Origin: an uncultured Acidimicrobiia bacterium
GTDB lineage: Bacteria; Actinomycetota; Acidimicrobiia; Acidimicrobiales; AC-14
Length of the DNA: 64,000 nucleotides
Assembly: GCA_963836205.1 (NCBI GenBank)
Contig: CAWIIV010000019.1
Span: 1 to 64,000, forward strand
Reading direction: 5' to 3'
How positions within the stretch are numbered: position 1 is the stretch's first letter; each line of letters begins with the position of its first letter. This document shows, in pieces, positions 31,146 to 49,083 of this stretch. The notes beneath the pieces were generated by a model. The model did not search any database. It saw only the letters and a list, made by a program, of their open reading frames with translations, and had not been told where the DNA came from. The position numbers and the translations under genes were made by a program.

Positions 31146-32602
31146 ATGTGGCGCCTCCGGTCCCTGCGGGGCCGGCTGGTGGCGGGCCTGCTGGCGGTGG
31201 CCGCGGTCGGCGTGCTCGTGCTCGGCTTCGGCACCTACCGGGCCCTGGCCGGCTTCCTCCAGTCCCGCACCGAGCAGCAGCTCCGTGACTCGCAGGACCC
31301 GGTCTACCGGGAGCTGGCCCGGGCCGCCTACCCCGGGCCCTCCCACCGCCGGGCCAGCGGCGAGTCGGTCATCCTCACCGGCACCTTCGCCGAGCTGCGC
31401 CGCCCGGGGGGTCCGGTGGCCACCTACAGCACCAAGGGGTGGATCGTGCCCGAGCTGGCCGACGCCACCACCATCGACGAGGACCGTTACTACGACGCCC
31501 CCGCCGTGTCCGGCGGCGGGTCGTACCGGGTGCTGGCCTCGGTCCTCGACGACGGCAGCGTCTTCTCGGTGGCCCTTCCCCTCGACGACAACCGGGCCAC
31601 GCTCCGCCAGCTGCTGGGCATCGAGGCGGGCATGGGGGCGGGCGTGCTCGTCGCCGTGGCCGCCCTGGGCTGGTGGGTCGTGCGCCTGGGCCTGCGCCCC
31701 CTCGACCACATCGGCGCCACCGCCGAGGCCATCGCCGCCGGCGACCTGAGCCGGCGGGTGGAGCGGGCCGAGGACCGCACCGAGGTGGGCCGCCTGGGGC
31801 TGGCCCTCAACCGCATGCTGGGCCAGATCGAGTCCGCCTTCGACGAGCGGCGGGCGACGGAGGACCGCCTGCGCCGCTTCGTCGCCGACGCCAGCCACGA
31901 GCTGCGCACGCCCCTCACCTCGATCAGGGGCTACGCCGAGCTGTTCCGCCGGGGGGCGGCCGACCGGCCCGAGGACCTGGCCACCGCCATGCGCCGCATC
32001 GAGGAGGAGTCGGCCCGCATGGGGGTCCTGGTGGAGGACCTGCTCCTGCTGGCCCGCCTCGACCAGGCCCGGGTCGACGAGGCCGACCGGCCGCCGGCGG
32101 TCGCCGGTCGACCTGGCCCGCCTGGCCGCCGATGCCGTGGCCGACGCCCGGGCGGTGTCGCCCGACCGACCCATCACCTTCACCGACGGGTCGCCGGTGA
32201 TGGTGTTGGGCGACGAGCTCCGCCTGCGCCAGGTGGCCGGGAACCTGCTCGCCAACGCCCAGGTCCACACGCCCCCGGGCACGGCGGTGCGGGTGACGGT
32301 GGCCGCCCACGGCGACCGGGCCCGCCTGGAGGTGAGCGACGACGGCCCCGGCCTGGCCCCCGAGGCCGCGGAACGGGTCTTCGAGCGCTTCTACCGGGTC
32401 GACAAGGCCCGCAGCCGGGCCACCGGGCGGTGCCGGGCTGGGACTGTCGATCGTGGCCGCCATCGCCGAGGTCCACGGCGGCTCGGCCCGCCTGGAGCCG
32501 CCCGCGCCCGACCGCCGGGGCGCCACGTTCGTGGTCGACCTCCCCCTGCTGGTCGAGGCCGATGCGTCGTCCGCGGAATCGGTCGGTCCGAAAATCGGTT
32601 GA
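31146..32602 (+). CDS. HAMP sensor histidine kinase (apparent frameshifts near 32100 and 32430)
   Basis: ADASHELRTPLT; N-box and G1 in a second frame; GLGLSIV in a third. Confidence 0.85.
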
Positions 32603-32648
32603 CTTTCCCAACGGTCGAACGCGATCGTCTGGCCGGAAAGGGGCGTGG

Positions 32649-34251
32649 ATGACCGACGACGGGCGAATGGACGACGGGCGGGTGGACGACGGGCGGGTGG
32701 ACGACCGGCGCTGGTGGACCCTCGGGATCCTCTGCCTCAGCCTGGTGATGATCATCGTGGGCAACACGGTGCTCAACGTCGCCCTCCCCACCCTGATCCG
32801 GGAGATCGACGCCTCGTCGACCGACCTCCAGTGGATGGTCGACGCCTACGCCCTCGTCTTCGCCGGCCTCCTCCTCACCGGGGGTGCGCTGGGCGACCGC
32901 TTCGGGCGCAAGGGCGCCCTCACCATCGGCCTGGTCGTCTTCGGGGCGGCGTCGATCCTGGCCGCGGTGTCCGACTCCGCCAGCCAGGTCGTCGTCACCC
33001 GGGGGATCATGGGCCTGGGCGCGGCGCTGGTGATGCCGGCCACCCTGTCGATCCTGGTCACCGTCTTCCCGCCCCACGAGCGGGGCCGGGCCATCGGCGT
33101 GTGGGCCGGCCTGGCCGGGGCGGGGGCGGCCGTCGGGCCCATCGCCGGCGGCTGGCTGCTGGAGCACTTCTGGTGGGGCTCGGTGTTCCTGGTCAACATC
33201 CCCGTGATCGCGGTGGCCCTGGTGGGCGGGCACTTCCTGGTCCCTACCTCCCGCGACCCCCGCAGGCCCCCGCTCGACCCGGTCGGGGCGGGACTGTCGA
33301 TCGTCGGCCTGGGGTCGGTGCTCTACGCCATCATCGAGGCCCCCACCCACGGCTGGACCGGAGGCCCTACCCTCGTCGCCGCCGGCATCGGCGTGGCGTT
33401 CCTGCTCCTGTTCGCGGCCTGGGAGCTGCGCACGCCCTTCCCCATGCTCGACCTGCGGTTCTTCAAGAACCCCCGGTTCAGCTCGGCCGCGGCGGCCATC
33501 ACCCTGGTGTTCTTCGCTCTCTTCGGCACGTTCTTCCTGCTCACCCAGTACCTGCAGCTGGTGCGGGGCTACTCCGCCCTCGGGGCGGGGGTGCACTCCC
33601 TCCCCGCTCCCCTCACCATCATGCTCATGGCCCCCATGAGCTCGAAGGTTGTCGACCGCTTCGGCGCCCGGTGGGTGATCGCGGCCGGCCTCTCGGTCGT
33701 GGCCGTCGGCCTGGCGCTGGCGTCCACCCTCGGCACCGACACCCCGTACGCCCTGCTCGCCGGGTGCCTCGTGATCCTGGCCACGGGGTTGGCCATGTCG
33801 ATGGCGCCCGCCACCACCTCGATCATGACGTCGCTGCCGCTGGGCAAGGCCGGCGTCGGCTCGGCCGTCAACGACACCACCCGCGAGCTCGGCGGTGCCC
33901 TCGGGGTGGCGGTCCTCGGCAGCCTGGTGGCGTCGCACTACGCATCGTCGATCGGGGCCGTCCCCGGCTTCGCCGGCGTCCCCGGCGACCTGGCCCGGCG
34001 GTCGCTGGGCACCGCCCTCCAGGTGGCGGCGTCGGCCGGCGAGGACGGCCCGCGGTTGGCGGCGGCGGCGAGGGCGGCCTTCGTCGACGCCATGTCGCTC
34101 GCCTTCGTCGTGGCGGCGGCGGTGACCCTGGGCGCGTCGCTGCTGGTCGCCCGCTTCATGCCCGGCGGACGGCCGGGGTGTCGTCCCTGGCCTCGTCCTC
34201 GGTGGCACGGCTCCGCCGGAGCCCGCCCCCGAGGTGCCGGCGCCCCTGTAG
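32649..34251 (+). CDS. DHA2-family MFS efflux transporter (3' end frameshifted)
   Basis: LNVALP, LGDRFGRK, WWGSVFLVNIP, SAVNDTTRELG; likely stop TAG 34249-34251. Confidence 0.88.
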
Positions 34252-34271
34252 CGCCGACGCCCGCCCGCCGC

Positions 34272-35798
34272 TTACACCGACGCCTGGGAGAAGCTGGCGC
34301 TCTTGCGCAGGTAGAACGCCCACGTCACGACGGCGAACACCAGGTAGGAGACGAGGAACACCCACAGGGCGGGCACCGACCAGTCGGCGTGGGCGGCGGC
34401 CACGGCCACCTTCTCGGCCGGAGTCGCGGCCGCCTTCACCAGGGCCGACACGTCGAGGCTCGCCTGGCGCAGGACCACCTGGATCAGGAAGCCGCCGAAA
34501 GCGCCGATCGCCCCCGCGATCCCGATCACCGCCGCCGCCCGGCGCTTGAACTCCACCGCCACCGACTTCGGCTCCAGCCCCTTCGCGCCCGCTTCCCGCC
34601 GCCCGAGCAGGGCGAAGATCGACGGGATCATCTTGTAGGTCGAGCCGTTCCCCATGCCGGCCAGCAGGAAGACGACCATGTAGGAGCCGAAGAACAGCGG
34701 GAAGCTGCGCTCCTGCACCCCGACGATGGCGGTGCCGGTGGCGATGGCCATGCCCAGGAACACCGCGAGCGTGACCCGGGCCCCGCCCACCTTGTCCGAC
34801 AGCCAGCCGCCGACGGGCCGGGCGACCGAGCCGATGAGGGCACCGACGAACCCGAGGCCGGCGAGGTAGGTGGCGATGAACGGGTGCCCGCCGAGGAATT
34901 CCGGGAACGTGTTCTTGATCACGAGCGGCAGGGCGAAGGAGAAGCCGATGAACGAGCCGAACGTGCCGATGTACAGGAACGCCATGATCCACGTCTGGCC
35001 GTAGCCGAGCGCCGCCACGTAGGAGCGCTTGTCCGCCTTGACCTGCGTCAGGCTGTCCATGTAGAGCCAGGCGCCGATGGCCGCGATGGCGATGAGGGGC
35101 ACCCACATCAGGCCGGCGTAGGCCAAATGGACGTCGTGGACCGGGAGCTTCACCGCTGCCGCGGGGATGCCGATGATGATCGCCAGCGGCACCAGGAGCT
35201 GGGCGGTGGCGACGCCGAGGTTGCCGCCGGCCGCGTTCATCCCCAGGGCGAAGCCCTTCTTCCCCTCGGGATAGAAGAACGAGATGTTGAACATCGAGGA
35301 GGAGAAGTTGCCTCCTCCGAAGCCGGCCGTGGCCGCGCAGGCCAGGAGGATCCACAGCTGGAGGTCGTGGGACTGGTCGGCCAGCCAGCCGCTCGGCACC
35401 ACGATGGCCAGCAGCAGCACCGGGATGAACAGGAACGAGGCGCTGATGGCGGTCCACGCCCGTCCGCCGAAGCGGGGCACGGCGAACGTGTAGGGGATGC
35501 GGAGGAACGATCCGACCAGGTTCGGGACAGCGGTGAGCATGAACAGCTCCGACACCGACAGCGTGAGCCCGATGTTGGCCAGGTTGATGACCACGATCGT
35601 CCACAGCACCCAGATGCTGAAGCCCATGTGCTCGGCGATGATCGAGAACACGAGGTTCTTGGCCGCGATCCGCTTGCCGGTCTGTTCCCAGAAGATCGGA
35701 TCCTCCGGCTCCCAGTGGTCGATCCAACGGCCTCTCCGACTGAAGTCGCCGGTCGAGGCGCCTGGTGATGGAGCGGTGATGGTGTCGGTCGTGCTCAA
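34272..35798 (-). CDS. narK: Nitrate/nitrite transporter
   Basis: WEPEDP.FW, GGGNFSSSM nitrate signature, FGSFIGFS, GNGSTYKMIP. Confidence 0.92.
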   Translation of the reverse strand: MSTTDTITAPSPGASTGDFSRRGRWIDHWEPEDPIFWEQTGKRIAAKNLVFSIIAEHMGFSIWVLWTIVVINLANIGLTLSVSELFMLTAVPNLVGSFLRIPYTFAVPRFGGRAWTAISASFLFIPVLLLAIVVPSGWLADQSHDLQLWILLACAATAGFGGGNFSSSMFNISFFYPEGKKGFALGMNAAGGNLGVATAQLLVPLAIIIGIPAAAVKLPVHDVHLAYAGLMWVPLIAIAAIGAWLYMDSLTQVKADKRSYVAALGYGQTWIMAFLYIGTFGSFIGFSFALPLVIKNTFPEFLGGHPFIATYLAGLGFVGALIGSVARPVGGWLSDKVGGARVTLAVFLGMAIATGTAIVGVQERSFPLFFGSYMVVFLLAGMGNGSTYKMIPSIFALLGRREAGAKGLEPKSVAVEFKRRAAAVIGIAGAIGAFGGFLIQVVLRQASLDVSALVKAAATPAEKVAVAAAHADWSVPALWVFLVSYLVFAVVTWAFYLRKSASFSQASV

Positions 35799-35876
35799 TG
35801 TCGCCTCCGGGGCAGGCTGGCTCGGATCGGCAAATAGCCCGTCGTCCGAAACCTAGGAGTCGATGCCTTCGGGGCC

Positions 35877-35892
35877 GTTTCCGACCCGTCAC
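35877..35892 (-). promoter_or_regulatory. GlnR box upstream of narK
   Basis: GTGAC-N6-GAAAC on minus strand matches gTnAc-n6-GaAAc. Confidence 0.75.
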
Positions 35893-39951: not shown

Positions 39952-42078
39952 TTAGGGCTTGGACATGGGTTCTAGGTGGACGGCGGATTGTTTGTAGTTG
40001 GGCTCGCGGGAGATGGGGTCGAACTCGTCGACCGTGAGGCGGTTGACGCAGAGCTCGTCGTAGTGGAAGGGCATGAAGACCTCGCCCTCGCGGATGGTGG
40101 CGGTGACGCGGACCGGGACGCCTTCGACGATGCCGCGGCGGGAGACGAGGCGGACCCGATCACCGGCGGCCACGCCCAGTCGCACCGCGTCGGCGGGGTT
40201 GACCTCGACCCAGCCCTCGGGGGCGAGGTGCTCCAGCACGCCCACCCGGCCCGTCTTGGTGCGCGTATGCCAGTGCTCGACGGTGCGGCCGGTGTTCAGG
40301 AGGAACGGGAACCGGTCGGTGAGGGCGTCGGCGATGGGCTCGGGCGACACGCACCACAACCGAGCCCGGCCGTCGGCAGTCGGGAACACCCCGTCCTCGT
40401 AGAGCCGAACCGACCCCCCCACGTCGGCGGTCGACGACGAGCACGGCCACTGCACCCCGCCGGCGGCGTCGATGCGGTCGTAGGTGATCCCCGAGTAGTC
40501 GCACAGCCGACCGGCCGACACCCGCCCCCACTCCCGGAAGGCGTCCTCCGGCCCCTTCCACCCGGGGAACAACGCCTCCCGCACCCCCAGCGCCTCCCCC
40601 ACCGAGAGAAAGATGTCGAAGTCGGACCGGGCCAGCCCCGGCGGAGCCACGGCCGCCCGCACCCGGGACACCCGCCGCTCGGCGTTGGTGTAGGTCCCGT
40701 CCTTCTCGCCCCAGATGGCGGCCGGCAGGACCACGTGGGCCAGGGCGGTGGTGGGCGTCTCGAACCCGTCCTGCACCACCAGCAGGTCGAGGTTGGACAG
40801 CGCCCGCTCCAGCCGGCCCCGGTTGGGGAACGACACCGGCGGGTTGGTGGCGATGATCCACAGCCCCTTGATCGTCCCGTCGTAGACCCCGTCGATGATG
40901 TCGGGGTACGCCCGCCCCCGGGTCACCGGCAGCCGGTCGACGGGCCAGTCCCACAGGCCGGCGATCTCCTCCCGGTCGGCGGCCGAGTCCCACGCCCGGT
41001 AGCCGGGGATGGAGGCCGTCGCCCCCGCCTCCCGGGTGCCCATGGCGTTGCACTGGCCGGTGATGGAGAACGGCGACGCCCCCGCCTTGCCCACGTTGCC
41101 CGTGATGAGGCACAGCGTGTTGAGCAACGTCACCGTCTCCGTGCCCTGGGTCGAGTGGTTCACGCCCATGGTCCACGCGGCGGTGGCCGACCCCGCCCGC
41201 CCGAAGGCCAACGCCGCCGCCCGGATGAGGTCCGCCGAGACCCCGCACTCGGCCGCCACCCGATCGAGGTCGTAGGACGCCACATGCGCCGCCAACTCCT
41301 CGAACCCCGACGTGTGGGCATCCACGTACGCCCGGTCGACCAGGCCCTCGTCGATGAGGATCTTGATCATCCCGTTGAGCAGGACGATGTCGGTGCGGGC
41401 CCGCACGGCCAGGTGGAGGTCGGCCATCATCGCCGTCTTCGTCACCCGGGGGTCGACCACGATCACCGTGGCGGTGGTGTTCCCGATGACCCGGGGCGCC
41501 AGCAGCGGGTGGTTGTCGGCGATGTTGGCCCCCACCAGGAGGATGCAGTCGGCCACCTCCAGGTCGGCGTAGGCCCCCGGCGGCCCGTCGCTGCCGAACG
41601 TGCGCTTGTAACCCGACACCGCGCTGGCCATGCACAGGGTGGTGTTGCCGTCGTAGTGGCGCAGGCCGAGGCCCAGGCGGGCCAGCTTGCCCAGGGCATA
41701 GAACTCCTCCGTCACCAGCTGGCCGGTGGACAGGACGGCCACCGAGTCCGGTCCGTGCTCGTGGAGCAGGCGGCGGAAGCCGACCACCATCGACCCGATG
41801 GCGGCGTCCCAGGTCACCGGCTGACCGCCGAGCAGCGGTGTGGTCAGCCGCCCGTCGACGTCGATCGTCCGGTGCTCCGACAACCCTTTGGGGCAGAGCC
41901 GGCCCTGGTTGACAGGGTGGGCGGGGTCGCCCATCACCGTCACCGCCTTGCCCCCCTTGACCCCGAGCAGCATCCCGCAGCCCACCGAGCAGTAGCCACA
42001 GGTGGTACGCACCCACTCGTCGGGCCGCACGTCCTCCCGCATCACCCCGTAGGTGTCGTCGGGGACGTACGTCGTCAT
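39952..42078 (-). CDS. nasA: Assimilatory nitrate reductase catalytic subunit (Mo-bisPGD, no Tat signal)
   Basis: CGYCSVGC..LCPKG, NTTLCMASA, TGQCNAMG.RE, WHTRTKT, DPISREPNYK; gene context. Confidence 0.88.
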   Translation of the reverse strand: MTTYVPDDTYGVMREDVRPDEWVRTTCGYCSVGCGMLLGVKGGKAVTVMGDPAHPVNQGRLCPKGLSEHRTIDVDGRLTTPLLGGQPVTWDAAIGSMVVGFRRLLHEHGPDSVAVLSTGQLVTEEFYALGKLARLGLGLRHYDGNTTLCMASAVSGYKRTFGSDGPPGAYADLEVADCILLVGANIADNHPLLAPRVIGNTTATVIVVDPRVTKTAMMADLHLAVRARTDIVLLNGMIKILIDEGLVDRAYVDAHTSGFEELAAHVASYDLDRVAAECGVSADLIRAAALAFGRAGSATAAWTMGVNHSTQGTETVTLLNTLCLITGNVGKAGASPFSITGQCNAMGTREAGATASIPGYRAWDSAADREEIAGLWDWPVDRLPVTRGRAYPDIIDGVYDGTIKGLWIIATNPPVSFPNRGRLERALSNLDLLVVQDGFETPTTALAHVVLPAAIWGEKDGTYTNAERRVSRVRAAVAPPGLARSDFDIFLSVGEALGVREALFPGWKGPEDAFREWGRVSAGRLCDYSGITYDRIDAAGGVQWPCSSSTADVGGSVRLYEDGVFPTADGRARLWCVSPEPIADALTDRFPFLLNTGRTVEHWHTRTKTGRVGVLEHLAPEGWVEVNPADAVRLGVAAGDRVRLVSRRGIVEGVPVRVTATIREGEVFMPFHYDELCVNRLTVDEFDPISREPNYKQSAVHLEPMSKP

Positions 42079-42088
42079 GCGCTCACCA

Positions 42089-43570
42089 TTAGGGCCGGGT
42101 CCGGAAGAAGCTCCCTGCCACCCGGAACGGAACCACGGTCACGTAGAACAGCCACCGCCCCAGCAGCTCACCGGCTGTCACCACGACCAGCGCCGCCCCC
42201 AGCCGCCCGCCCGCGGCCCCCCCCGCCAGGGGCTCGATCAGGGCACCGGCCAGCAGCAGGAGCGCCATCCCGGCCAGGGCCATCCGGCCCTGGAACCGAC
42301 CCCCGAAGCGGTCGAGGAGGAGGAAGGCGGTGCCCTGGTGCTGGCGGTCAGTACGGTGCCGCACCGCCTTCGCCAGGTGGACCTGGACCGCCACCTGGGC
42401 CAGCGTCCCGAAGGCGGCGGCTATCACCAGTCCCACCAGCCAACCGTTGCCCACCCGGGACCGGTCCAGCATGAAATAGGCCAGCAGGGGGCCGGTGGCG
42501 GCGGCGGTGGCGAAGAAGGCGACGGGGGTCCGCCACGAGTTCCACACCGGCCGGGCCGGCACCAGGTAGAGCCGGCCGCTGGCGTAGACCCCCGCCACGC
42601 CGGCCACCACCGCCAGCACGCCGACGACCGGGTTCAACCCGGCTGCGTAGCCCAGCGACAACCCGGAGAACAGCGAGAAGAGGGCGACCTCCCGGCTCAG
42701 CCACGACGTGCGCACGTTGCGCAAAGCCTTCAACGCCCGCGCCGGCTTGCCCAGGTGGAGCAGCGAGGCCCCCAGGGCCACCGCCCCGGCCACGAAGGCG
42801 CCCACCGCCGCGCCCCCCATGACGGCCCGGGTGGCGGCGCCGGCCAGTTGCAGCACGACGGTGGCCGCCACCGTCCCCAGGGAGAGCTGGGTGAGCAGGG
42901 TGAGGGCCACGAGGGGCCAGTGGGCGTCCTCCGGCTCGACCCGGTAGTCGTCGGCCGCGGTCATGGTCGACAGGTCGCCCGGCGGCAGGACGATCCGGGT
43001 GGACGACATGGTGATGGCCACCGGGGGCAGCCCGGGCGCGTCGCCGGCGGAGGGGTCGGCCCGCCAGGCGGCCACGTCGACCGCCTCCAGGCCGATGGCG
43101 AAGGTGGGGCACGACTGCACGCAGGCCGGGGTCTGGCCGGCGTCGATGCGGGGTCGGCACATGTCGCACTTGGAGACGATCTTGCGGGCCTTGTCGTAGA
43201 CCGGCACCTCGTAGGGGCAGTTCCACATGCAGTACTGGCAGCCCACGCACTCGTCGGGGTGGTGGACGACGATCCCGTTGCCGAGCTTCTCGTAGGCCTT
43301 GGTGGGGCAGCCCGACAGGCAGGTGGGGTCGAGGCAGTGGTTGCAGGCCATCGACAGGTTGAAGCGGCGGGTCTGGGGGAAGCTCCCGCTCTCCAGCTCG
43401 CCCACCCGTCGCCAGGCCTCGTCGACCGGCGTCCCGTTCTGCTCGGCGCACGCCACCTCGCACGAATGGCAGCCCACGCACGAGTTCATGTCGAACGTGA
43501 ACCGGTACTGCTCACCGTCCTCCAAGGGCAGGAGGGCCGGGATTCCGAGCGTGGTGAGGCTGAGGGTCAT
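42089..43570 (-). CDS. Fused DmsB-like 4Fe-4S protein plus DmsC/NrfD-like membrane anchor
   Basis: Four Cys clusters (CVGCHSCEVAC; CNHC..PTC..GCP; CVGCQYCMWNCP; CDMC..PACVQSCP), then HLGKP.RA, SWLSRE, ELLGRWLFY. Confidence 0.9.
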   Translation of the reverse strand: MTLSLTTLGIPALLPLEDGEQYRFTFDMNSCVGCHSCEVACAEQNGTPVDEAWRRVGELESGSFPQTRRFNLSMACNHCLDPTCLSGCPTKAYEKLGNGIVVHHPDECVGCQYCMWNCPYEVPVYDKARKIVSKCDMCRPRIDAGQTPACVQSCPTFAIGLEAVDVAAWRADPSAGDAPGLPPVAITMSSTRIVLPPGDLSTMTAADDYRVEPEDAHWPLVALTLLTQLSLGTVAATVVLQLAGAATRAVMGGAAVGAFVAGAVALGASLLHLGKPARALKALRNVRTSWLSREVALFSLFSGLSLGYAAGLNPVVGVLAVVAGVAGVYASGRLYLVPARPVWNSWRTPVAFFATAAATGPLLAYFMLDRSRVGNGWLVGLVIAAAFGTLAQVAVQVHLAKAVRHRTDRQHQGTAFLLLDRFGGRFQGRMALAGMALLLLAGALIEPLAGGAAGGRLGAALVVVTAGELLGRWLFYVTVVPFRVAGSFFRTRP

Positions 43571-43920
43571 GCCGGGTTCGAGACCTCGACCCGGCCGTCG
43601 ACCACCCGGACCCCGAAGACGGGCACCGACACCTCGGCGTCGTCGAGGCACTGGCCGGTTCGGAGGTCGAAGGACTGCTTGTAGATCGGCGACGCCACCT
43701 TCAGCCGCTCGCCCCGGGAGCCCACGATCCCCCGGGACAGGACGAACGCCTGGCTGAAGGGGTCGAAGTTGGACAGGGCGAACACGTCGCCGTCCACCAG
43801 GAACACCGCGACCTGATGTGCTCCCACCAGCGCGGCCACCCCCCGGCCGGGAACGAGGTCGCCGACGGCGCAGACGTCGACCCACACCGTCGTCGAGGAG
43901 GCCGTGCCGGGACCCTTCAC
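43567..43920 (-). CDS. nirD: Nitrite reductase small subunit
   Basis: N.DPFS.A.VLSRGIVG, VASPIYKQ.FDL.TG.C. Confidence 0.92.
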   Translation of the reverse strand: MKGPGTASSTTVWVDVCAVGDLVPGRGVAALVGAHQVAVFLVDGDVFALSNFDPFSQAFVLSRGIVGSRGERLKVASPIYKQSFDLRTGQCLDDAEVSVPVFGVRVVDGRVEVSNPA

Positions 43921-46535
43921 CGTCCGCCTGCGGCCAGCAGGGCAGGGTCGGGCTTCTCCTCGCCCGGCCGGGCGGGCCGGGGCTGGCCCCGCTCGGTGAC
44001 GAACACCACGTTGGGGTCGACCTGGTCGGAGTTCACGAACGACCGGAAGCGCTTGACCCGCTCGGGGTCGTCGATGGTGGCCTTCCACTCGCACTCGTAC
44101 GTGGTCACGTGGCGGGCCATCTCCGCCTCCAGTTCGGCGCAGATCCCCAACGCGTCGTCGATCACGACCCGCCGGAGGTGCTCGATGCCGCCCTCCAGCT
44201 TGTTGAACCACACGTTGGTGCGCTCCAGCCGGTCGGCGGTGCGGATGTAGAACATCAGGAAGCGGTCGAGGTACCGGAACACCGTCTCCCGGTCGAGGTC
44301 GGCCGCCAGGAGCACCGCGTGCTGGGGCTTCATGCCGCCGTTGCCGCACACGTAGACGTTCCAGCCCTTCTCGGTGGCGATGACCCCGAAGTCCTTGCCC
44401 TGGGCCTCGGCGCACTCCCGGGTGCAGCCCGACACCGCCGCCTTGAGCTTGTGCGGCGCCCGCAGGCCCCGGTAGCGCAGCTCGAGGTCGATGGCCAGGG
44501 TGACCGAGTCCTGCACGCCGAACCGGCACCAGGTGTTGCCCACGCACGACTTCACCGTGCGCAGGGCCTTGCCGTAGGCGTGGCCCGACTCCATGCCCAC
44601 GTCGACCAGGCGGCGCCAGATGCGCGGGAGCTGGTCGACCCGGGCCCCGAAGAGGTCGATGCGCTGGGCGCCGGTGATCTTGGTGTAGAGCCCGAACTCC
44701 TTGGCCACCTCGCCGATGGTGATGAGCTGGTCGGGGGTGATCTCGCCCCCCGGCACCCGGGGGATCACCGAGTAGGTGCCGTCGCGCTGGAGGTTGGCGA
44801 GGAAGTGGTCGTTGGTGTCCTGGAGGGTGGCCTGCTCACCGTCGAGGATGTAGCCCCCGCCCATCGACGCCAGCATCGACGCCACCGCCGGCTTGCAGAT
44901 CTCGCAGCCCTTGCCCTTGCCGTGGCTGGCGATGAGCTCGGAGTACGACGTGATGCGATGCACCCGGACCAGGTCGAACAGCTCCTGGCGGCTGTAGGCG
45001 AAGTGCTCGCAGAGGTTGTTCGACACCTCCAGGCCCAGCCGCTTCATCTCGAACCGGAGAAGCTCGGTCACGAGCGGCACGCAGCCGCCGCAGCCGGTGC
45101 CGGCCGCGGTGCACTCCTTCATGTCGGAGACGGTGTGGGCGCCGCCGCCGATGGCCCCACAGATGACGCCTTTGTCGACGTTGTTGCACGAGCAGATCAC
45201 GGCCGTGTCGGACAGGCCGCCGACGCCCATGGTGGGCGGACCCGCCCCGGTGCGGGCGGGGAAGATGAGCTCCTCGGGGTGGTCGGGCGTGGGCATGTCG
45301 CCCCGGACCATCTGCACGAGGGTCTGGTAGAGGGTCGCGTCGCCGACGAGCATCCCGCCGATGACGGTGCGCCGCTCCTTGCGGTCGGGCGGCCCCACCA
45401 CCAGCCGCTTGTAGACGTTGGCCAGGGGGTCGCTGTAGGTCACGGCCTCGGCGCCGGGTGAGGTGGCGAAGGCGTCGCCGAAGCTGGCCACGTCGATGCC
45501 GAGGAGCTTGAGCTTGGTCGACATGTCGGCCCCGAGGAACTCGGCGTCGCCCCCCAGGATGCGATCGGCGACCACCCGGGCCATGTGGTAGCCGGGCGCG
45601 ACCAGGCCGTAGATGCGGCGCCGGGCCACGCTTCCGTCGGGGGCGAGGGCGCACTCGCCGATGGCGTAGATCCTGGGGTCGGACGTGCGGCAGGCCTCGT
45701 CGACGATGACGCCGCCCCGCTCCCCCATCCGCAGCCCGGCCGCCTTGGCCAGCTCGTCCCGGGGCCGGATGCCCGCCGAGAAGACGACCATGCCCACCCG
45801 GAGGTCGTCGATCGGACCACCATCCGGTCCGTCGTTGGCGAAGTGCATGCCGTTCACCCGGCCCCGCCGGTCGCGCAGGATCTCCTCCGTCCGCATCCCG
45901 GTGTGGATCGTCACGTCCAGCTCCTCGATGCGCCGTCGGAGGGCGGAGGAACCGGCGTCGTCGACCTGCATGGGCATGAGCCGGTCGGCGAACTCGACCA
46001 CGTGGGTCTCGAGGCCGAGGCAGTGCAGGGCGTTGGCCGCCTCCAGCCCGAGCAGGCCGCCACCGACCACGGCCCCCGCCCGGCAGCCCTTGGCGTACTC
46101 GCGGATCGCCTCCAGGTCGTCGAGGGTGCGGTAGACGAAGCAGCCGGGGGCGTCGTTGCCGGGCAGCGGGGGGACGAACGGGTACGAGCCGGTGGCCAGC
46201 ACGAGGGCGTCGTAGGCGATCTTGATCCCGTTGCGGGACGTGACCGTGGCCGCCTTGGTGTCGATCGACGCCACCGCGTCGCCCACGTGGACGGAGAGGC
46301 CGAAGCGCTCGAAGAACCCGGGCTGGACGAGGGAGAGCTCCTCGGCCGAGGTCCCCGAGAAGAACGAGCTGAGACCGACCCGGTCGTAGGCCAGGCGGCC
46401 TTCCTCGCAGAAGGTGACGATGTCCCACTCGGCGGTGGCGCCCCGGTCGAGGAGGACCTCGAGCAGCTTGTGGCCGACCATGCCGTTGCCGACGACGACG
46501 AGCGTGCGCCGGGGGGAGATCTCGAACGCGTTCAT
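43917..46535 (-). CDS. nirB: NADH nitrite reductase large subunit
   Basis: GNGMVG, GGGLLGLE, CSCN/CGGC, KSCVG..WC, SGCTREC. Confidence 0.95.
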   Translation of the reverse strand: MNAFEISPRRTLVVVGNGMVGHKLLEVLLDRGATAEWDIVTFCEEGRLAYDRVGLSSFFSGTSAEELSLVQPGFFERFGLSVHVGDAVASIDTKAATVTSRNGIKIAYDALVLATGSYPFVPPLPGNDAPGCFVYRTLDDLEAIREYAKGCRAGAVVGGGLLGLEAANALHCLGLETHVVEFADRLMPMQVDDAGSSALRRRIEELDVTIHTGMRTEEILRDRRGRVNGMHFANDGPDGGPIDDLRVGMVVFSAGIRPRDELAKAAGLRMGERGGVIVDEACRTSDPRIYAIGECALAPDGSVARRRIYGLVAPGYHMARVVADRILGGDAEFLGADMSTKLKLLGIDVASFGDAFATSPGAEAVTYSDPLANVYKRLVVGPPDRKERRTVIGGMLVGDATLYQTLVQMVRGDMPTPDHPEELIFPARTGAGPPTMGVGGLSDTAVICSCNNVDKGVICGAIGGGAHTVSDMKECTAAGTGCGGCVPLVTELLRFEMKRLGLEVSNNLCEHFAYSRQELFDLVRVHRITSYSELIASHGKGKGCEICKPAVASMLASMGGGYILDGEQATLQDTNDHFLANLQRDGTYSVIPRVPGGEITPDQLITIGEVAKEFGLYTKITGAQRIDLFGARVDQLPRIWRRLVDVGMESGHAYGKALRTVKSCVGNTWCRFGVQDSVTLAIDLELRYRGLRAPHKLKAAVSGCTRECAEAQGKDFGVIATEKGWNVYVCGNGGMKPQHAVLLAADLDRETVFRYLDRFLMFYIRTADRLERTNVWFNKLEGGIEHLRRVVIDDALGICAELEAEMARHVTTYECEWKATIDDPERVKRFRSFVNSDQVDPNVVFVTERGQPRPARPGEEKPDPALLAAGGR

Positions 46536-46600: not shown

Positions 46601-46616
46601 GTTGCGTCCCGGTGAC
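46601..46616 (-). promoter_or_regulatory. GlnR box upstream of nirB
   Basis: GTCAC-N6-GCAAC on minus strand. Confidence 0.65.
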
Positions 46617-46674: not shown

Positions 46675-46890
46675 CTACACCGGCACCAGGTCGACGTGGA
46701 CACCTGCGGCCGCCGCCAACCGGCGGAGGTCGTCCGGGTGCGAGGTGAGCGACTCGAGCTCCGCCTGCCGGCGCATGGCCTCGTTCACCCTGGCGCTCAC
46801 GCTGTCGGCCCGGCCGGCGGCGACTGCCTCCCGGGCGGCGGCCAAGTGCACGGGGTCGACCGAAGCCGTGAGCCGAACCTTCTCCTGCAT
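46675..46890 (-). pseudogene. Internally deleted TA module (antitoxin N-terminus fused to PIN-toxin C-terminus)
   Basis: KVRLTASVD..AVAAGRADSVSA.VNEAM joined to LTSHPDDLRRLAAAAGVHVDLVPV. Confidence 0.6.
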
Positions 46891-46921
46891 ACGAACAGCG
46901 TACGCCTTGATGACGATCCTC

Positions 46922-47764
46922 CTACTTGGCGGCCGACCGGCCGAGGAGGCCGAGGCGGTGGAGGACGGCCACGCACCGGCGGGCGACGCCCGAGCCCGCG
47001 GCCCGCTTTACCTCCCGGAGCAGGGCGTGGAGCTCCGGGCGCCCGTCCATCACCCATCGCGAGAAGGCACCGGCGTCGCACCAGGCCGCGTCGAGAGGGC
47101 CCAACGGGGGTGCCGACCAGCGTCCCTCGACGGCCTCCCATCGCAAACGCTCCCAGTCGAGCGCCCGGGCCAGGGCCTTGCCGGCGGCGACGGGATCGTC
47201 GGCCCCCTCGATCGGTTCCTCCCCGGCGGCGGCGAGCATCCTCACCGCCGGGTGCATCGCCCTGGCCTCGGCCCACGTGAGCGCTCCCCTGCGCTCCCGG
47301 GCGGCCCCGACCACGCTCTCCAGCCAGATGGCGGCGAAGAGATGCCCGGTGCTGACCTGCGGGGGCGCGGTGGGCAGCCCGAGGGCCCGCTGGAGGCCGT
47401 CGAGGGTGAGTCCGAACGCGGGCGGCTCCCGGTGGACCTCACCAGCTACCCGCAGCCGGCTCACCACCTCGCCCGAGCGGTGGACGAGCAGGGCCAGCGC
47501 GGTTCGCCTCCGGTCGCGGCCGCCGGTGGACATGGCGTCGAGCGGGCGGGCCCAACCGTGCACGGCGACGCCCAGCGCCACCCAGTCGTCGGGGGCCACC
47601 ATGCCCAGGAGAACGTCGGCCGGCGCCTCGCCCACGAGGTCGAGGAAGCCCACGCTCGCACCGTCGGCGGTGGCCACCACGTGGACGAGCAGGTCGTCGT
47701 CGTCCTCTTCCGCGGCACACAACTCGTCGGCCAACTGGCCGAGGAACTCCAGGATCTGCGCCAT
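46922..47764 (-). CDS. Hypothetical protein
   Basis: Long ORF with coding-like codon usage; LQRALGLPT and WCDAGAFSRW segments. Confidence 0.7.
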   Translation of the reverse strand: MAQILEFLGQLADELCAAEEDDDDLLVHVVATADGASVGFLDLVGEAPADVLLGMVAPDDWVALGVAVHGWARPLDAMSTGGRDRRRTALALLVHRSGEVVSRLRVAGEVHREPPAFGLTLDGLQRALGLPTAPPQVSTGHLFAAIWLESVVGAARERRGALTWAEARAMHPAVRMLAAAGEEPIEGADDPVAAGKALARALDWERLRWEAVEGRWSAPPLGPLDAAWCDAGAFSRWVMDGRPELHALLREVKRAAGSGVARRCVAVLHRLGLLGRSAAK

Positions 47765-47894
47765 CGCACTGCCTTCGGTCGTGAGACTCGAAAGGCCGTC
47801 GTCGATCCGACGGCGAGGCACCGGCTGCCCGGGCGCACAGACTCTGGCCCGCCCCTCCGCGGTCGTCAAGAGGCCAGAAGCCAGTCAGGTTGTC

Positions 47895-47932
47895 TTCACC
47901 GAGCCGATACGGCGAACGTACGGTCCCGTCAC
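47895..47932 (+). promoter_or_regulatory. GlnR-type box upstream of nnaR
   Basis: TTCAC-N6-GATAC-N6-CGTAC-N6-GTCAC. Confidence 0.6.
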
Positions 47933-47946
47933 GGGGCCGGGGGACT

Positions 47947-49083
47947 ATGTCACCCATGACCCCGATCACCTGTCTGGGGCCACTCGAGGGCTTCGTGGTC
48001 GGCATCACCGCCGACCGGCGATGGGAAGAGCAGGCCGAGCTTCTACGTCGGCGGGGCGCCACCGTCGTCCACGGCCCCTGCATGGACACCCTCTACCTGG
48101 CCGACGACGACGACCTCAGGCGGGCCACTGTCGAGGTCATCGACCGCCCGCCCGACGTGGTGGTGGCCACCACCGGCATCGGTGTGCGGGCGTGGTTGGA
48201 GACGGCCGAGGCCTGGGGCATGGGGCCCGCGCTCATGGCTGCCCTCACCGAGGCCCGCATCCTGGCCCGGGGACCCAAGGCCGCGGGCGTGGTCATCGCC
48301 GCCGGGTTGCCGGTGTGGGCCCGGTCGGAGACCGAGCAGATGGACGACGTGCTGGCCAAGCTCCTGGCCGACGGGGTGGAGGGGCGGCGGATCGCCCTCC
48401 AGGAGTACGGCATGGAGAGCCCCGAGTTCATCGCCGCCCTCGAGGCGGCGGGGGCCACCGTGCTCCGGGTACCGGTGTACCGCTGGCGCTACCCGGCCGA
48501 CACCCGCCCCGCCCTGACCATGATCGACGCCGCCCTCAACGGCCGGGTCGACGCCATCACCTTCACCAGCGCCCCCGCGGTGCGCAACCTGTTCATGATC
48601 GCGGCCGAGCAGAAGGTCGACGACGACCTCCGGCGGGCCTTCAACCACGGCCTCACCGCCGCCTGCGTGGGTCCGGTGTGCGCCCAGGCGGCCAAGGACA
48701 TGGGCGTCGCCGCTCCGATCGAGCCCACGGTGGGTCGATTGGGGCTGCTGGTCCGGGTCTTGAGCGACGAGCTGGCCGCCCGCCGGCAGACGTTCACCGT
48801 CGGGGACAAGGAACTCGTCGTGCAGGGGTCGGCCGTCCAGGCCGACGGGGACAGCTCGACCCTCTCCGGCCGGGAGCGGGCCGTGTTCGAGGCCCTGGCC
48901 GCCCGTCCGGGCGTGGTCGTCGACCGCACGGCGCTGCTGGAGCGGATCTGGGGCTCGCCCGACGTCGACCCCCACCTGCTCGAAGTGGTGGTCGGCCGGC
49001 TGCGGCGCCGGCTCGGACGGTGCTCGGCCGCGGTCGAGGTCACCCGGTCCCGGGGCTACCGTCTGGTGGTCGAGCCCAGGTAG
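47947..49083 (+). CDS. nnaR: NnaR: HemD-like domain plus OmpR-type winged helix, nitrate assimilation regulator
   Basis: GITADRR, ARGPKA, FTSAPA, C-terminal wHTH; next to nirBD. Confidence 0.85.
   Translation: MSPMTPITCLGPLEGFVVGITADRRWEEQAELLRRRGATVVHGPCMDTLYLADDDDLRRATVEVIDRPPDVVVATTGIGVRAWLETAEAWGMGPALMAALTEARILARGPKAAGVVIAAGLPVWARSETEQMDDVLAKLLADGVEGRRIALQEYGMESPEFIAALEAAGATVLRVPVYRWRYPADTRPALTMIDAALNGRVDAITFTSAPAVRNLFMIAAEQKVDDDLRRAFNHGLTAACVGPVCAQAAKDMGVAAPIEPTVGRLGLLVRVLSDELAARRQTFTVGDKELVVQGSAVQADGDSSTLSGRERAVFEALAARPGVVVDRTALLERIWGSPDVDPHLLEVVVGRLRRRLGRCSAAVEVTRSRGYRLVVEPR

Follow-up and report, generated by a model that had tools for sequence, protein, structure and literature searches.

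A stretch of 64,000 nucleotides from the genome of an uncultured Acidimicrobiia bacterium (contig CAWIIV010000019.1; this whole stretch is called the window here) contains a nitrate assimilation operon in which the gene for the molybdoenzyme NasA follows a gene for a fusion of a DmsB-type iron-sulfur (FeS) domain and a DmsC-type membrane anchor. We propose that NasA and the fusion together form a membrane-bound nitrate reductase that faces the cytoplasm, with NasA as its catalytic subunit, and that this enzyme is fed by quinol and works in an assimilation pathway. The probability of this whole chain is, in our estimate, about 65%. We infer that the two proteins associate physically, that quinol is the electron donor, that the reaction is electroneutral and that the cell benefits from it. 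A membrane-bound Nas drawing on menaquinol had been suggested in a first-pass annotation of the window; topology, quinol site, synteny, docking and the genes menA and menB support this suggestion in silico, and to call it a hybrid of an assimilatory and a respiratory design, as was done there, is fair.

The operon consists of four genes in the order nirB-nirD-fusion-nasA, which are located head to tail on the minus strand and span positions 39952-46535 according to the open reading frames (ORFs) of the window. nirB (43917-46535) encodes the large subunit of NAD(P)H nitrite reductase with 872 amino acids (NF011565 1195 bits, cut-off 883; TIGR02374 1061 bits) and nirD (43567-43920) the small subunit with 117 amino acids (TIGR02378 109 bits, cut-off 74.65). 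The fused FeS/anchor subunit (42089-43570) is 493 amino acids long and contains the Pfam domains Fer4_11 and DmsC. The last gene, nasA (39952-42078), encodes 708 amino acids with the Pfam domains of a catalytic subunit that binds molybdenum bis(pyranopterin guanine dinucleotide) (Mo-bisPGD). The nirB stop codon is overlapped by the GTG start of nirD (GTGA), the nirD stop codon by the ATG start of the fusion gene (ATGA), and 10 nucleotides separate the fusion stop from the nasA start. Gene content, coordinates and the tight coupling of the four genes thus agree with the first-pass annotation. The G+C content of the window is 70-75%. A longer ORF for the fusion (598 amino acids, GTG at 43885) was rejected because its arginine-rich head has no counterpart in the relatives and alignments begin at about residue 10 of the 493 amino acid form; the 105 additional residues are the nirD region read in another frame. 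A longer N-terminus for NasA was also discarded: none of the 20 in-frame codons upstream is a start codon, and this stretch lies over the last part of the fusion gene.

The N-terminal half of the fusion protein is a DmsB-type four-cluster ferredoxin domain (residues ~20-165, positions 43076-43513 on the minus strand; Fer4_11, E-value 2.6e-22). Its FeS motifs comprise C31/34/37/41, C76/79/84/88, C108/111/114/118 and C135/138/150/154. These 16 cysteines are invariant in an alignment of 36 sequences, which fits a set of four [4Fe-4S] clusters, for which this number of ligands would suffice. The domain is 35% identical to Escherichia coli DmsB (E-value 1e-37). The TIGR02951 score of the fusion (150.3 bits) is under the equivalog cut-off of 214.1, and the fusion is therefore related to DmsB and not an orthologue.

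The C-terminal half is a DmsC-type membrane domain with eight helices (residues ~218-481, positions 42128-42919 on the minus strand; PF04976, 74.6 bits, cut-off 22.3). Its alignment with E. coli DmsC runs over the full length (276 amino acids, 31% identity, E-value 4e-13). In the AlphaFold2 model of the fusion (mean predicted local distance difference test score, pLDDT, 93.2; predicted template modelling score, pTM, 0.91) eight long helices follow the FeS domain. As a test for a membrane anchor we asked for a Pfam DmsC match over the gathering score and for eight transmembrane helices in two four-helix bundles, and found both. A Foldseek search with the model returned ArrB, PsrB and FdnH as similar to the N-terminal half and ActC and PsrC as similar to the C-terminal half. 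Relatives of the fusion carry source annotations such as 'DmsC/YnfH family molybdoenzyme membrane anchor subunit', 'formate dehydrogenase iron-sulfur subunit', 'DMSO reductase anchor' or similar. The labels of the best database relatives point to the Acidimicrobiales of the Actinomycetota.

Four residues of E. coli DmsC, H65, S82, E87 and R271, align with H272, S289, E294 and R472 of the fusion, and all four are invariant in the fusion family (36 of 36 sequences). Substitutions of DmsC H65 block quinol oxidation and E87 is important in quinol coordination, as described in the sections on DmsC in PMC8076601 (Calisto and Pereira, 2021). According to the same sections, S82 is kept in all quinone-interacting NrfD-like subunits and R271 is the conserved mid-membrane arginine (PMC8076601). 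H272, S289 and E294 are the putative quinol site of the fusion, with R472 as the putative mid-membrane residue. The fusion family was also compared with FqoABC, a formate:quinone complex tentatively named in a part of PMC8076601; this identity was rejected because FqoC has an Asp at the position where the fusion family, DmsC and SoeC have a His.

To predict the orientation in the membrane, the helix boundaries of the window fusion were projected on the 36-sequence alignment, and Lys and Arg residues were counted in the loops. On average 14.0 such residues are located in the loops on the side of the FeS domain and 0.8 on the opposite side; the bias has the same direction in all 36 sequences and amounts to 17 vs 3 in the window fusion. 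In E. coli DmsC the bias is reversed, with approximately four Lys and Arg on the side of the termini and seven on the other (counted by hand on the sequence). No twin-arginine translocation (Tat) motif was seen on the window fusion or among the 80 family N-termini inspected. Because of the charge bias and because NasA and the fusion lack a Tat signal, we expect both the quinol-site loop (residues 272-294) and the FeS domain at the cytoplasmic face. This supports the cytoplasm-facing arrangement suggested in the first-pass annotation. The hallmarks of a periplasm-facing system of the DmsABC type, peripheral subunits on the outer side and a Tat-exported catalytic subunit, were not found here.

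NasA contains the Pfam domains Molybdop_Fe4S4 (PF04879, E-value 2.8e-19), Molybdopterin and Molydop_binding. The last of these ends at residue 697 of 708, 11 residues before the end of the protein, and Pfam finds no FeS, flavin or 2Fe-2S tail. The four ligands of its [4Fe-4S] cluster FS0, C27, C30, C34 and C62, show no variation among 33 NasA sequences. Only 15 residues of NasA precede the position aligned to residue 2 of mature Desulfovibrio desulfuricans NapA, and the N-terminus has no RR (twin-arginine) motif, nor did such a motif show up in the N-termini of 64 partner NasAs that were inspected. Both features ascribed to NasA at first sight, no Tat signal and no C-terminal FeS or diflavin extension, therefore hold. 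The nearest solved relatives are FdhF of HDCR and D. desulfuricans NapA (both approximately E-value 1e-133). At the position of the molybdenum ligand NasA has the motif Cys149-Met150, which is invariant in the 33 partner NasAs; in the alignment the NasA sequence 'TTLCMASAVSGY' is matched by 'PRLCMASAVGGY' in D. desulfuricans NapA, the stretch 'LCMASAV' (CMASAV motif) being identical in both, and by 'ARLCHAPTVAG' (Cys-His) in FdhF. Operon and regulatory context argue for nitrate as the substrate of the window NasA.

For a complex model, NasA was paired with fusion residues 1-215, on the basis of alignments of 33 and 36 rows, respectively. The interface score ipSAE was 0.95 in three runs, and the best of three controls reached 0.00. 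The runs share at least 85% of their contacts, and the pLDDT of the partner is 86. Of 157 solved complexes 116 pass the mark used, as do 2 of 215 mismatched pairs, which is a rough guide here, with our own alignments supplied. The predicted interface places NasA residues 57-67, around the FS0 ligand C62, against fusion residues 30-46, which hold the first cluster motif. In this model the interface between FS1 and FS0 has the canonical arrangement of solved pairs of a catalytic subunit and a four-cluster protein. The multimer prediction that had been recommended as a check thus places the fusion's first FeS cluster against the [4Fe-4S] cluster of NasA.

A profile search of the genome (4.05 Mb, 25 contigs, 88.6% complete) found menA and menB, both over their cut-offs; as judged from these genes, menaquinone synthesis by the classical pathway is encoded. 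The futalosine-pathway family PF02621 was not found in this incomplete genome. It contains one NasA gene and one gene of the DmsC family, and no NarG over the cut-off was detected in it. A second molybdoenzyme is encoded on another contig (C7:159118-162751, minus strand) by an open frame of 1171 amino acids, which is 29-33% identical to NasA in the matching parts. It adjoins a gene for a four-cluster FeS protein, has no DmsC-type gene beside it and is probably formate-dehydrogenase-like.

The fusion family is large: 11376 cluster representatives were found at E-values up to 1e-3 and 734 clusters (50% identity) at up to 1e-30, so that the similar fusions suspected in other phyla are very common. 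For a survey of gene neighborhoods one genome per species was used; 598 relatives were found and 80 loci retained, and we assigned the phyla from the names of the genome records. The loci belong to Acidobacteriota (23), Campylobacterota (18), Actinomycetota (11, one of them labelled Bifidobacterium, which looks mis-binned), Myxococcota (8, including three Sorangium genomes, among them Sorangium cellulosum So0157-2), Planctomycetota (8), Verrucomicrobiota/Kiritimatiellota (7), a Leptospira relative (1) and other groups (4). At least 1,000 nucleotides downstream of the fusion were available in 71 of the 80 loci; the nine with less sequence were not counted for pairing. In 63 of these 71 loci the fusion is followed on the same strand, within 800 nucleotides downstream, by the start of a NasA homologue (40-76% identity); in three it is further away (L041, 852 nucleotides; L017, 2425 nucleotides; L056, 5834 nucleotides). 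The phylogenomic co-occurrence that the first-pass annotation listed as a check is thus seen, and the pairing spans at least eight phyla. The order nirB-nirD-fusion-nasA of the window is found in 15 loci from four phyla. A local nitrite reductase gene is of the NirB type in 23 of the 80 loci and of the NirA type in 30, which gives 53 loci with an assimilatory-type gene in the flank. Since the type of the nitrite reductase gene varies between loci, the fusion-NasA pair is the constant unit. The identities to the window fusion and to the window NasA co-vary (Spearman 0.81, n=56), which is partly due to shared descent. A distant branch of fusions (33-37% identical; P0151-P0203 and others, loci L050-L080) has an N-terminal extension of approximately 50 residues before the FeS domain with a conserved 'LTAVERF(A/S)..H' motif, and the NasA partners of this branch have an N-terminal motif of their own, 'DG.LT..L....G.FGLG.VP'.

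Within the same phylum, full-length matches to the fusion without an internal stop are rare: among 300 sampled genomes (the tallies include five flagged as unpublished, on which no claim is based) G052 has two, G110 one and G190 one. All four adjoin a NasA match. Two further genomes (G203 and G229) have matches over residues ~21-363 only. One of the two fusion-NasA pairs of G052 (C1:3790317-3793958) is in reversed order, with nasA before the fusion, and has in-frame TGA in the matches. Of the NasA homologues in the sample that lack the fusion, the best ones examined (two of two, 43-45% identical) carry a C-terminal diaphorase of Pyr_redox_2, Rubredoxin_C and Fer2_BFD domains. The NasA core thus comes with interchangeable donor modules: these relatives have a diaphorase tail, and in the window the membrane FeS protein occupies the place of the donor. 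The homologues at L091:1357-5019 (G210) and L095:1318-4941 (G300) are approximately 1210 amino acids long, and their C-terminal diaphorase resembles the N-terminus of NirB; by their domain composition they would be single-polypeptide NADH-nitrate reductases.

Several findings weigh against the proposed quinol-fed complex. The pass of the complex model may reflect likeness instead of binding, because FdnGH, ArrAB, PsrAB and HDCR are already solved. The predicted NasA interface (48 positions) is no better conserved in distant fusion-linked proteins (0.336 vs 0.436 elsewhere; 21 loci) than in fusion-less ones (0.325 vs 0.437 elsewhere; 7 loci); expressed as the ratio of interface identity to that of the rest, the values are 0.77 (fusion-linked) and 0.75 (fusion-less), which gives no support either way. 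The positive-inside rule is statistical, and the orientation given here is a prediction from charge counts. NasA scores under both NCBIfam Nas equivalog cut-offs (NasA_Halo 530 bits, cut-off 1000; NasC 512.5 bits, cut-off 1100), for which reason we regard it as a divergent member of the Nas/Nap clade and not as one of these two modelled equivalogs. No NasA gene is present in the flank of five of the 71 usable fusion loci (L016, L024, L031, L033 and L060); in two of these, L024 (3929-7517) and L060 (7034-10368), the fusion directly follows a NirA-type gene. Finally, the flavin adenine dinucleotide (FAD)/NAD(P)H module and the BFD-type 2Fe-2S domain of NirB could in principle feed the FeS chain.

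This last point leads to an alternative in which the fusion binds NasA, its FeS chain is fed from the cytoplasm by the FAD/BFD part of NirB or by ferredoxin, and the DmsC-type domain is a mere tether or a relic. NirB consists of Pyr_redox_2 (FAD/NAD), Fer2_BFD (BFD-type 2Fe-2S), NIR_SIR_ferr and NIR_SIR (siroheme/4Fe-4S) domains and so brings the required FAD/NAD and BFD domains; nirB, nirD and the fusion are translationally coupled in the window, and the 15 loci with the same gene order also speak for such a link. Yet 30 of the 80 loci have, in place of NirB, a reductase of the NirA type that lacks an NAD(P)H module, others have no nitrite reductase gene in the flank, and the fusion-NasA pair is kept nonetheless. 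A mere tether would moreover not need the invariant residues H272, S289, E294 and R472. A relay of the Paracoccus NasG type is unavailable, since NirD contains two Cys and one His in total and no Rieske CxH or CxxH ligands. We therefore consider a cytoplasmic feed unlikely. No separate NADH diaphorase gene is present among the window ORFs scanned, as the first-pass annotation had stated; the diaphorase function as such is, however, present in the operon, in NirB itself. The closest relative of the NirB N-terminus found elsewhere in the genome is 28% identical. Neither a dedicated diaphorase subunit or domain nor a NasG relay, the marks of an NADH-dependent Nas, was found for NasA, and the FAD module of NirB remains as a possible donor.

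The loci without a nearby NasA gene bear on a second alternative. NasA might be an ordinary soluble enzyme of the ferredoxin- or flavodoxin-dependent NarB type, with the fusion serving the nitrite reductase or an unlinked enzyme. With 708 amino acids and no extension, NasA indeed has the size of cyanobacterial NarB (given in a part of PMC7331816), and the nirA-fusion pairs of L024 and L060, which lack NasA, together with three orphan fusions in Campylobacterales, agree with such a role. A NirA-type gene (double NIR_SIR) directly upstream of the fusion occurs in Campylobacterota and some Verrucomicrobiota (L010, L017, L024, L032, L040, L057, L060 and L080). The pairs of L024 and L060 imply that NasA need not be the only partner of the fusion, which might also donate electrons to NirA-type nitrite reductases. 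The orphan fusions (L016, L031 and L033; Sulfurimonas/Campylobacterales) have no NasA or nitrite reductase gene within up to 9 kb, and their neighbors are chemotaxis, cyclic di-GMP and efflux genes. Against a soluble NarB-type enzyme stand the position of the fusion immediately upstream of NasA in 63 of 71 loci, the complex model that passes with a canonical FS1-FS0 interface, and the co-variation of fusion and NasA identities. In known complex iron-sulfur molybdoenzymes, including those matched by Foldseek, the four-cluster protein docks on the Mo-bisPGD subunit. This alternative is very unlikely in our view.

The low NCBIfam scores of NasA fit an enzyme that acts on a substrate other than nitrate, and the formate dehydrogenase alpha model scores about as high (523 bits). 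Catalytic subunits resembling NapA or NasA can, with DmsB-like partners, have other substrates, an example being the antimonite oxidase NaoABC; a part of PMC11521347 describes an oxidase similar to NapA whose partner resembles DmsB. The Cys-Met motif of NasA is that of NapA, though, and not the Cys/Sec-His of formate dehydrogenases, and the nitrate-assimilation operon and regulatory context, here and in most related loci, speak against another substrate, which we regard as highly improbable.

A further possibility is that the same chemistry, from quinol through the FeS clusters to NasA, serves mainly in dissimilation or redox balancing. A nitrate reductase that oxidises quinol can serve as a sink for electrons, and the absence of a detectable NarG from the genome would leave room for such a role. 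Two Acidobacteria strains reduce nitrate to nitrite although nasA-type genes are the only ones found (reported in a section of PMC5900883), and the Granulicella loci L013 and L047 carry the fusion-NasA module. The regulatory surroundings in the window point the other way. A site resembling a GlnR box (GTCAC-n6-GCAAC; 46601-46616, minus strand) is located 66-81 nucleotides upstream of the nirB ATG, and a second one (35877-35892, minus strand) 25-40 nucleotides upstream of a gene for a narK-type nitrate/nitrite transporter (34272-35852, minus strand; TIGR00886 283 bits, under the cut-off of 311.7; NF011608 297 bits). In the 64 kb, the pattern GTNAC-N6-GNAAC, which we take to be the actinobacterial GlnR box, matches at these two places only, with 0.99 matches expected by chance. 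An NnaR-type regulator gene (47785-49083, plus strand; NF005568 377 bits) is divergent from nirB and encodes a uroporphyrinogen-III synthase-like HEM4 domain (E-value 8e-37) and an OmpR-type DNA-binding domain (Trans_reg_C, E-value 8e-14). Sites and regulator bear out the GlnR/NnaR-like promoter noted in the first pass, and the pattern suggests that the window holds a small GlnR/NnaR regulon with sites at narK and nirB. The position of the genes behind nirBD and near this regulator, with box-like sites ahead of nirB and narK, argues against a dissimilatory main role, as do the 53 of 80 loci with an assimilatory-type nitrite reductase gene; with a quinol site on the cytoplasmic side the step would in addition be non-electrogenic. 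A mainly dissimilatory or redox-balancing role thus appears quite unlikely here; in other lineages it may apply.

Several other reading frames lie around these regulatory genes. Between the nirB promoter and the NnaR-type gene two ORFs on the minus strand (46675-47007 and 46922-47884; 110 and 320 amino acids) have a high third-position GC and match nothing in Pfam or NCBIfam. The longer of the two extends over the annotated 5′ end of the NnaR-type gene; the starts are uncertain, and the true start of the NnaR-type gene is probably later than 47785. A stop-free frame of 1540 codons on the plus strand (31146-35768) encodes a HAMP/HisKA sensor-kinase part and, approximately 220 codons later, a DHA2-type efflux pump of the major facilitator superfamily (TIGR00711 over the cut-off), and continues over narK on the opposite strand. 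It probably represents two genes and a stop-free stretch typical of high G+C.

In the proposed quinol-fed enzyme, menaquinol would be oxidized at the cytoplasmic face of the DmsC-type domain, and two electrons would travel through the four [4Fe-4S] clusters of the DmsB-type domain to NasA. NirBD would then reduce nitrite to ammonium with NAD(P)H. The nitrate-reduction step would be electroneutral because the quinol protons are released on the side where nitrate reduction consumes protons. Electrons from NADH, succinate, H2 or sulfide could enter via the quinone pool, so that upstream dehydrogenases such as complex I would conserve energy, and this routing would spare low-potential reductant.

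Textbook assimilatory nitrate reductases have two electron sources, NADH via a flavoprotein, or ferredoxin or flavodoxin. Klebsiella NasCA, Bacillus NasBC and Paracoccus NasBGC are NADH-dependent soluble enzymes. The window system resembles them in its cytoplasmic Mo-bisPGD subunit of the Nas clade, in the nirBD-type clustering and in its assimilatory context. They receive electrons from NADH via an FAD diaphorase, in Paracoccus also via the Rieske-type NasG, whereas the donor-like gene of the window encodes a membrane FeS protein (the Paracoccus comparison is in part from a portion of PMC6618116). The NarB and NasA enzymes of cyanobacteria, Azotobacter and Haloferax share with the window NasA a size of approximately 700 amino acids (size from a part of PMC7331816) and FS0 and Mo-bisPGD as the only cofactors; they are soluble monomers with a diffusible donor, whereas here the gene for a membrane partner is conserved immediately upstream.

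The NarGHI quinol site is located on the outer face, which makes the enzyme electrogenic. NarGHI of Mycobacterium tuberculosis offers a functional precedent, in that nitrate is reduced in the cytoplasm with electrons from quinol and NirBD carries out the rest of the assimilation. Unlike the window system, NarGHI has a catalytic subunit of the NarG clade, a di-heme b anchor and this outer-face quinol site, and no NarG was found in the window genome. NapGH and NapC likewise provide a route from quinol through FeS clusters to a catalytic subunit of the Nap/Nas clade; there, in contrast, the catalytic subunit is periplasmic and the architecture of NapH and NapG is unrelated to a DmsC-type anchor. 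The use of M. tuberculosis NarGHI in nitrate assimilation was reported by Malm et al. (2009), as cited in a passage of PMC13332983.

The closest designs are DmsABC and SoeABC. With E. coli DmsABC the fusion shares the module for four [4Fe-4S] clusters (35% identity to DmsB), a heme-free eight-helix anchor (31% identity to DmsC) and the residues H65, S82, E87 and R271. DmsAB faces the periplasm and is Tat-exported (section on DmsABC in PMC8076601), whereas the window system has no Tat signal and an inverted charge bias; furthermore, DmsB and DmsC are separate proteins and not one polypeptide, and the catalytic subunit here belongs to the Nas/Nap clade and not to DmsA. SoeABC of Allochromatium vinosum and Aquifex aeolicus is the one NrfD/DmsC-type complex that the pertinent section of PMC8076601 describes as inward-facing with an inverted anchor; it is placed on the cytoplasmic (N) side, as is predicted for the window system, and has a DmsC-like site with His65 and Glu87. 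Unlike the window system, SoeABC oxidizes sulfite and reduces quinone, consists of three separate subunits and has a catalytic subunit of another clade, a comparison made by description only. By analogy, the window system may work like a DmsABC turned inside out, as proposed for SoeABC. It differs from both designs in having a Nas-clade catalytic subunit, in joining electron transfer and anchor in one polypeptide, and in its assimilatory context.

The first-pass annotation knew of no characterisation of such a system, and we found no description of a Nas with a DmsB/DmsC-type partner in the full-text literature, with subscription-only papers outside the search. In the available part of PMC7331816 (Wells et al., 2020) none of the clade of NasA/NasC, AioA, NapA and cytoplasmic Fdh is associated with canonical four-cluster or anchor subunits. 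The accessible sections of a 2023 survey (PMC10100899) mention no such Nas partner, and those of the 2021 catalogue of NrfD-like complexes (PMC8076601) list no nitrate-assimilation enzyme. The window system, in its parts a complex iron-sulfur molybdoenzyme with a catalytic subunit of the Nas type, is widespread and apparently uncharacterised. The chances are about evenly balanced that NasA, together with an FeS wire and a DmsC anchor in a single polypeptide that oxidizes menaquinol at the cytoplasmic face, represents a third widespread class of assimilatory nitrate reductases.

If the proposal is correct, nitrogen assimilation would be plugged directly into the respiratory chain, with energy being conserved at complex I or at the sulfide, H2 or succinate dehydrogenases, and the energy and reductant cost of nitrate assimilation would change for the carriers. 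These include abundant soil and marine groups such as Acidobacteriota, Acidimicrobiia, Planctomycetota, Verrucomicrobiota and sulfur-oxidizing Campylobacterota. Chemolithotrophs such as Sulfurimonas could then assimilate nitrate without reverse electron flow, and the conversion of nitrate into nitrite by Acidobacteria with only nasA-type genes could be explained. At loci such as L024 and L060 the module may also feed NirA-type nitrite reductases. Annotation rules that name the fusion 'formate dehydrogenase iron-sulfur subunit' or 'DMSO reductase anchor' would need revision. The fusion would, furthermore, add a second natural example of a DmsC-type quinol site in inverted orientation, and one that could easily be tested in cultured hosts.

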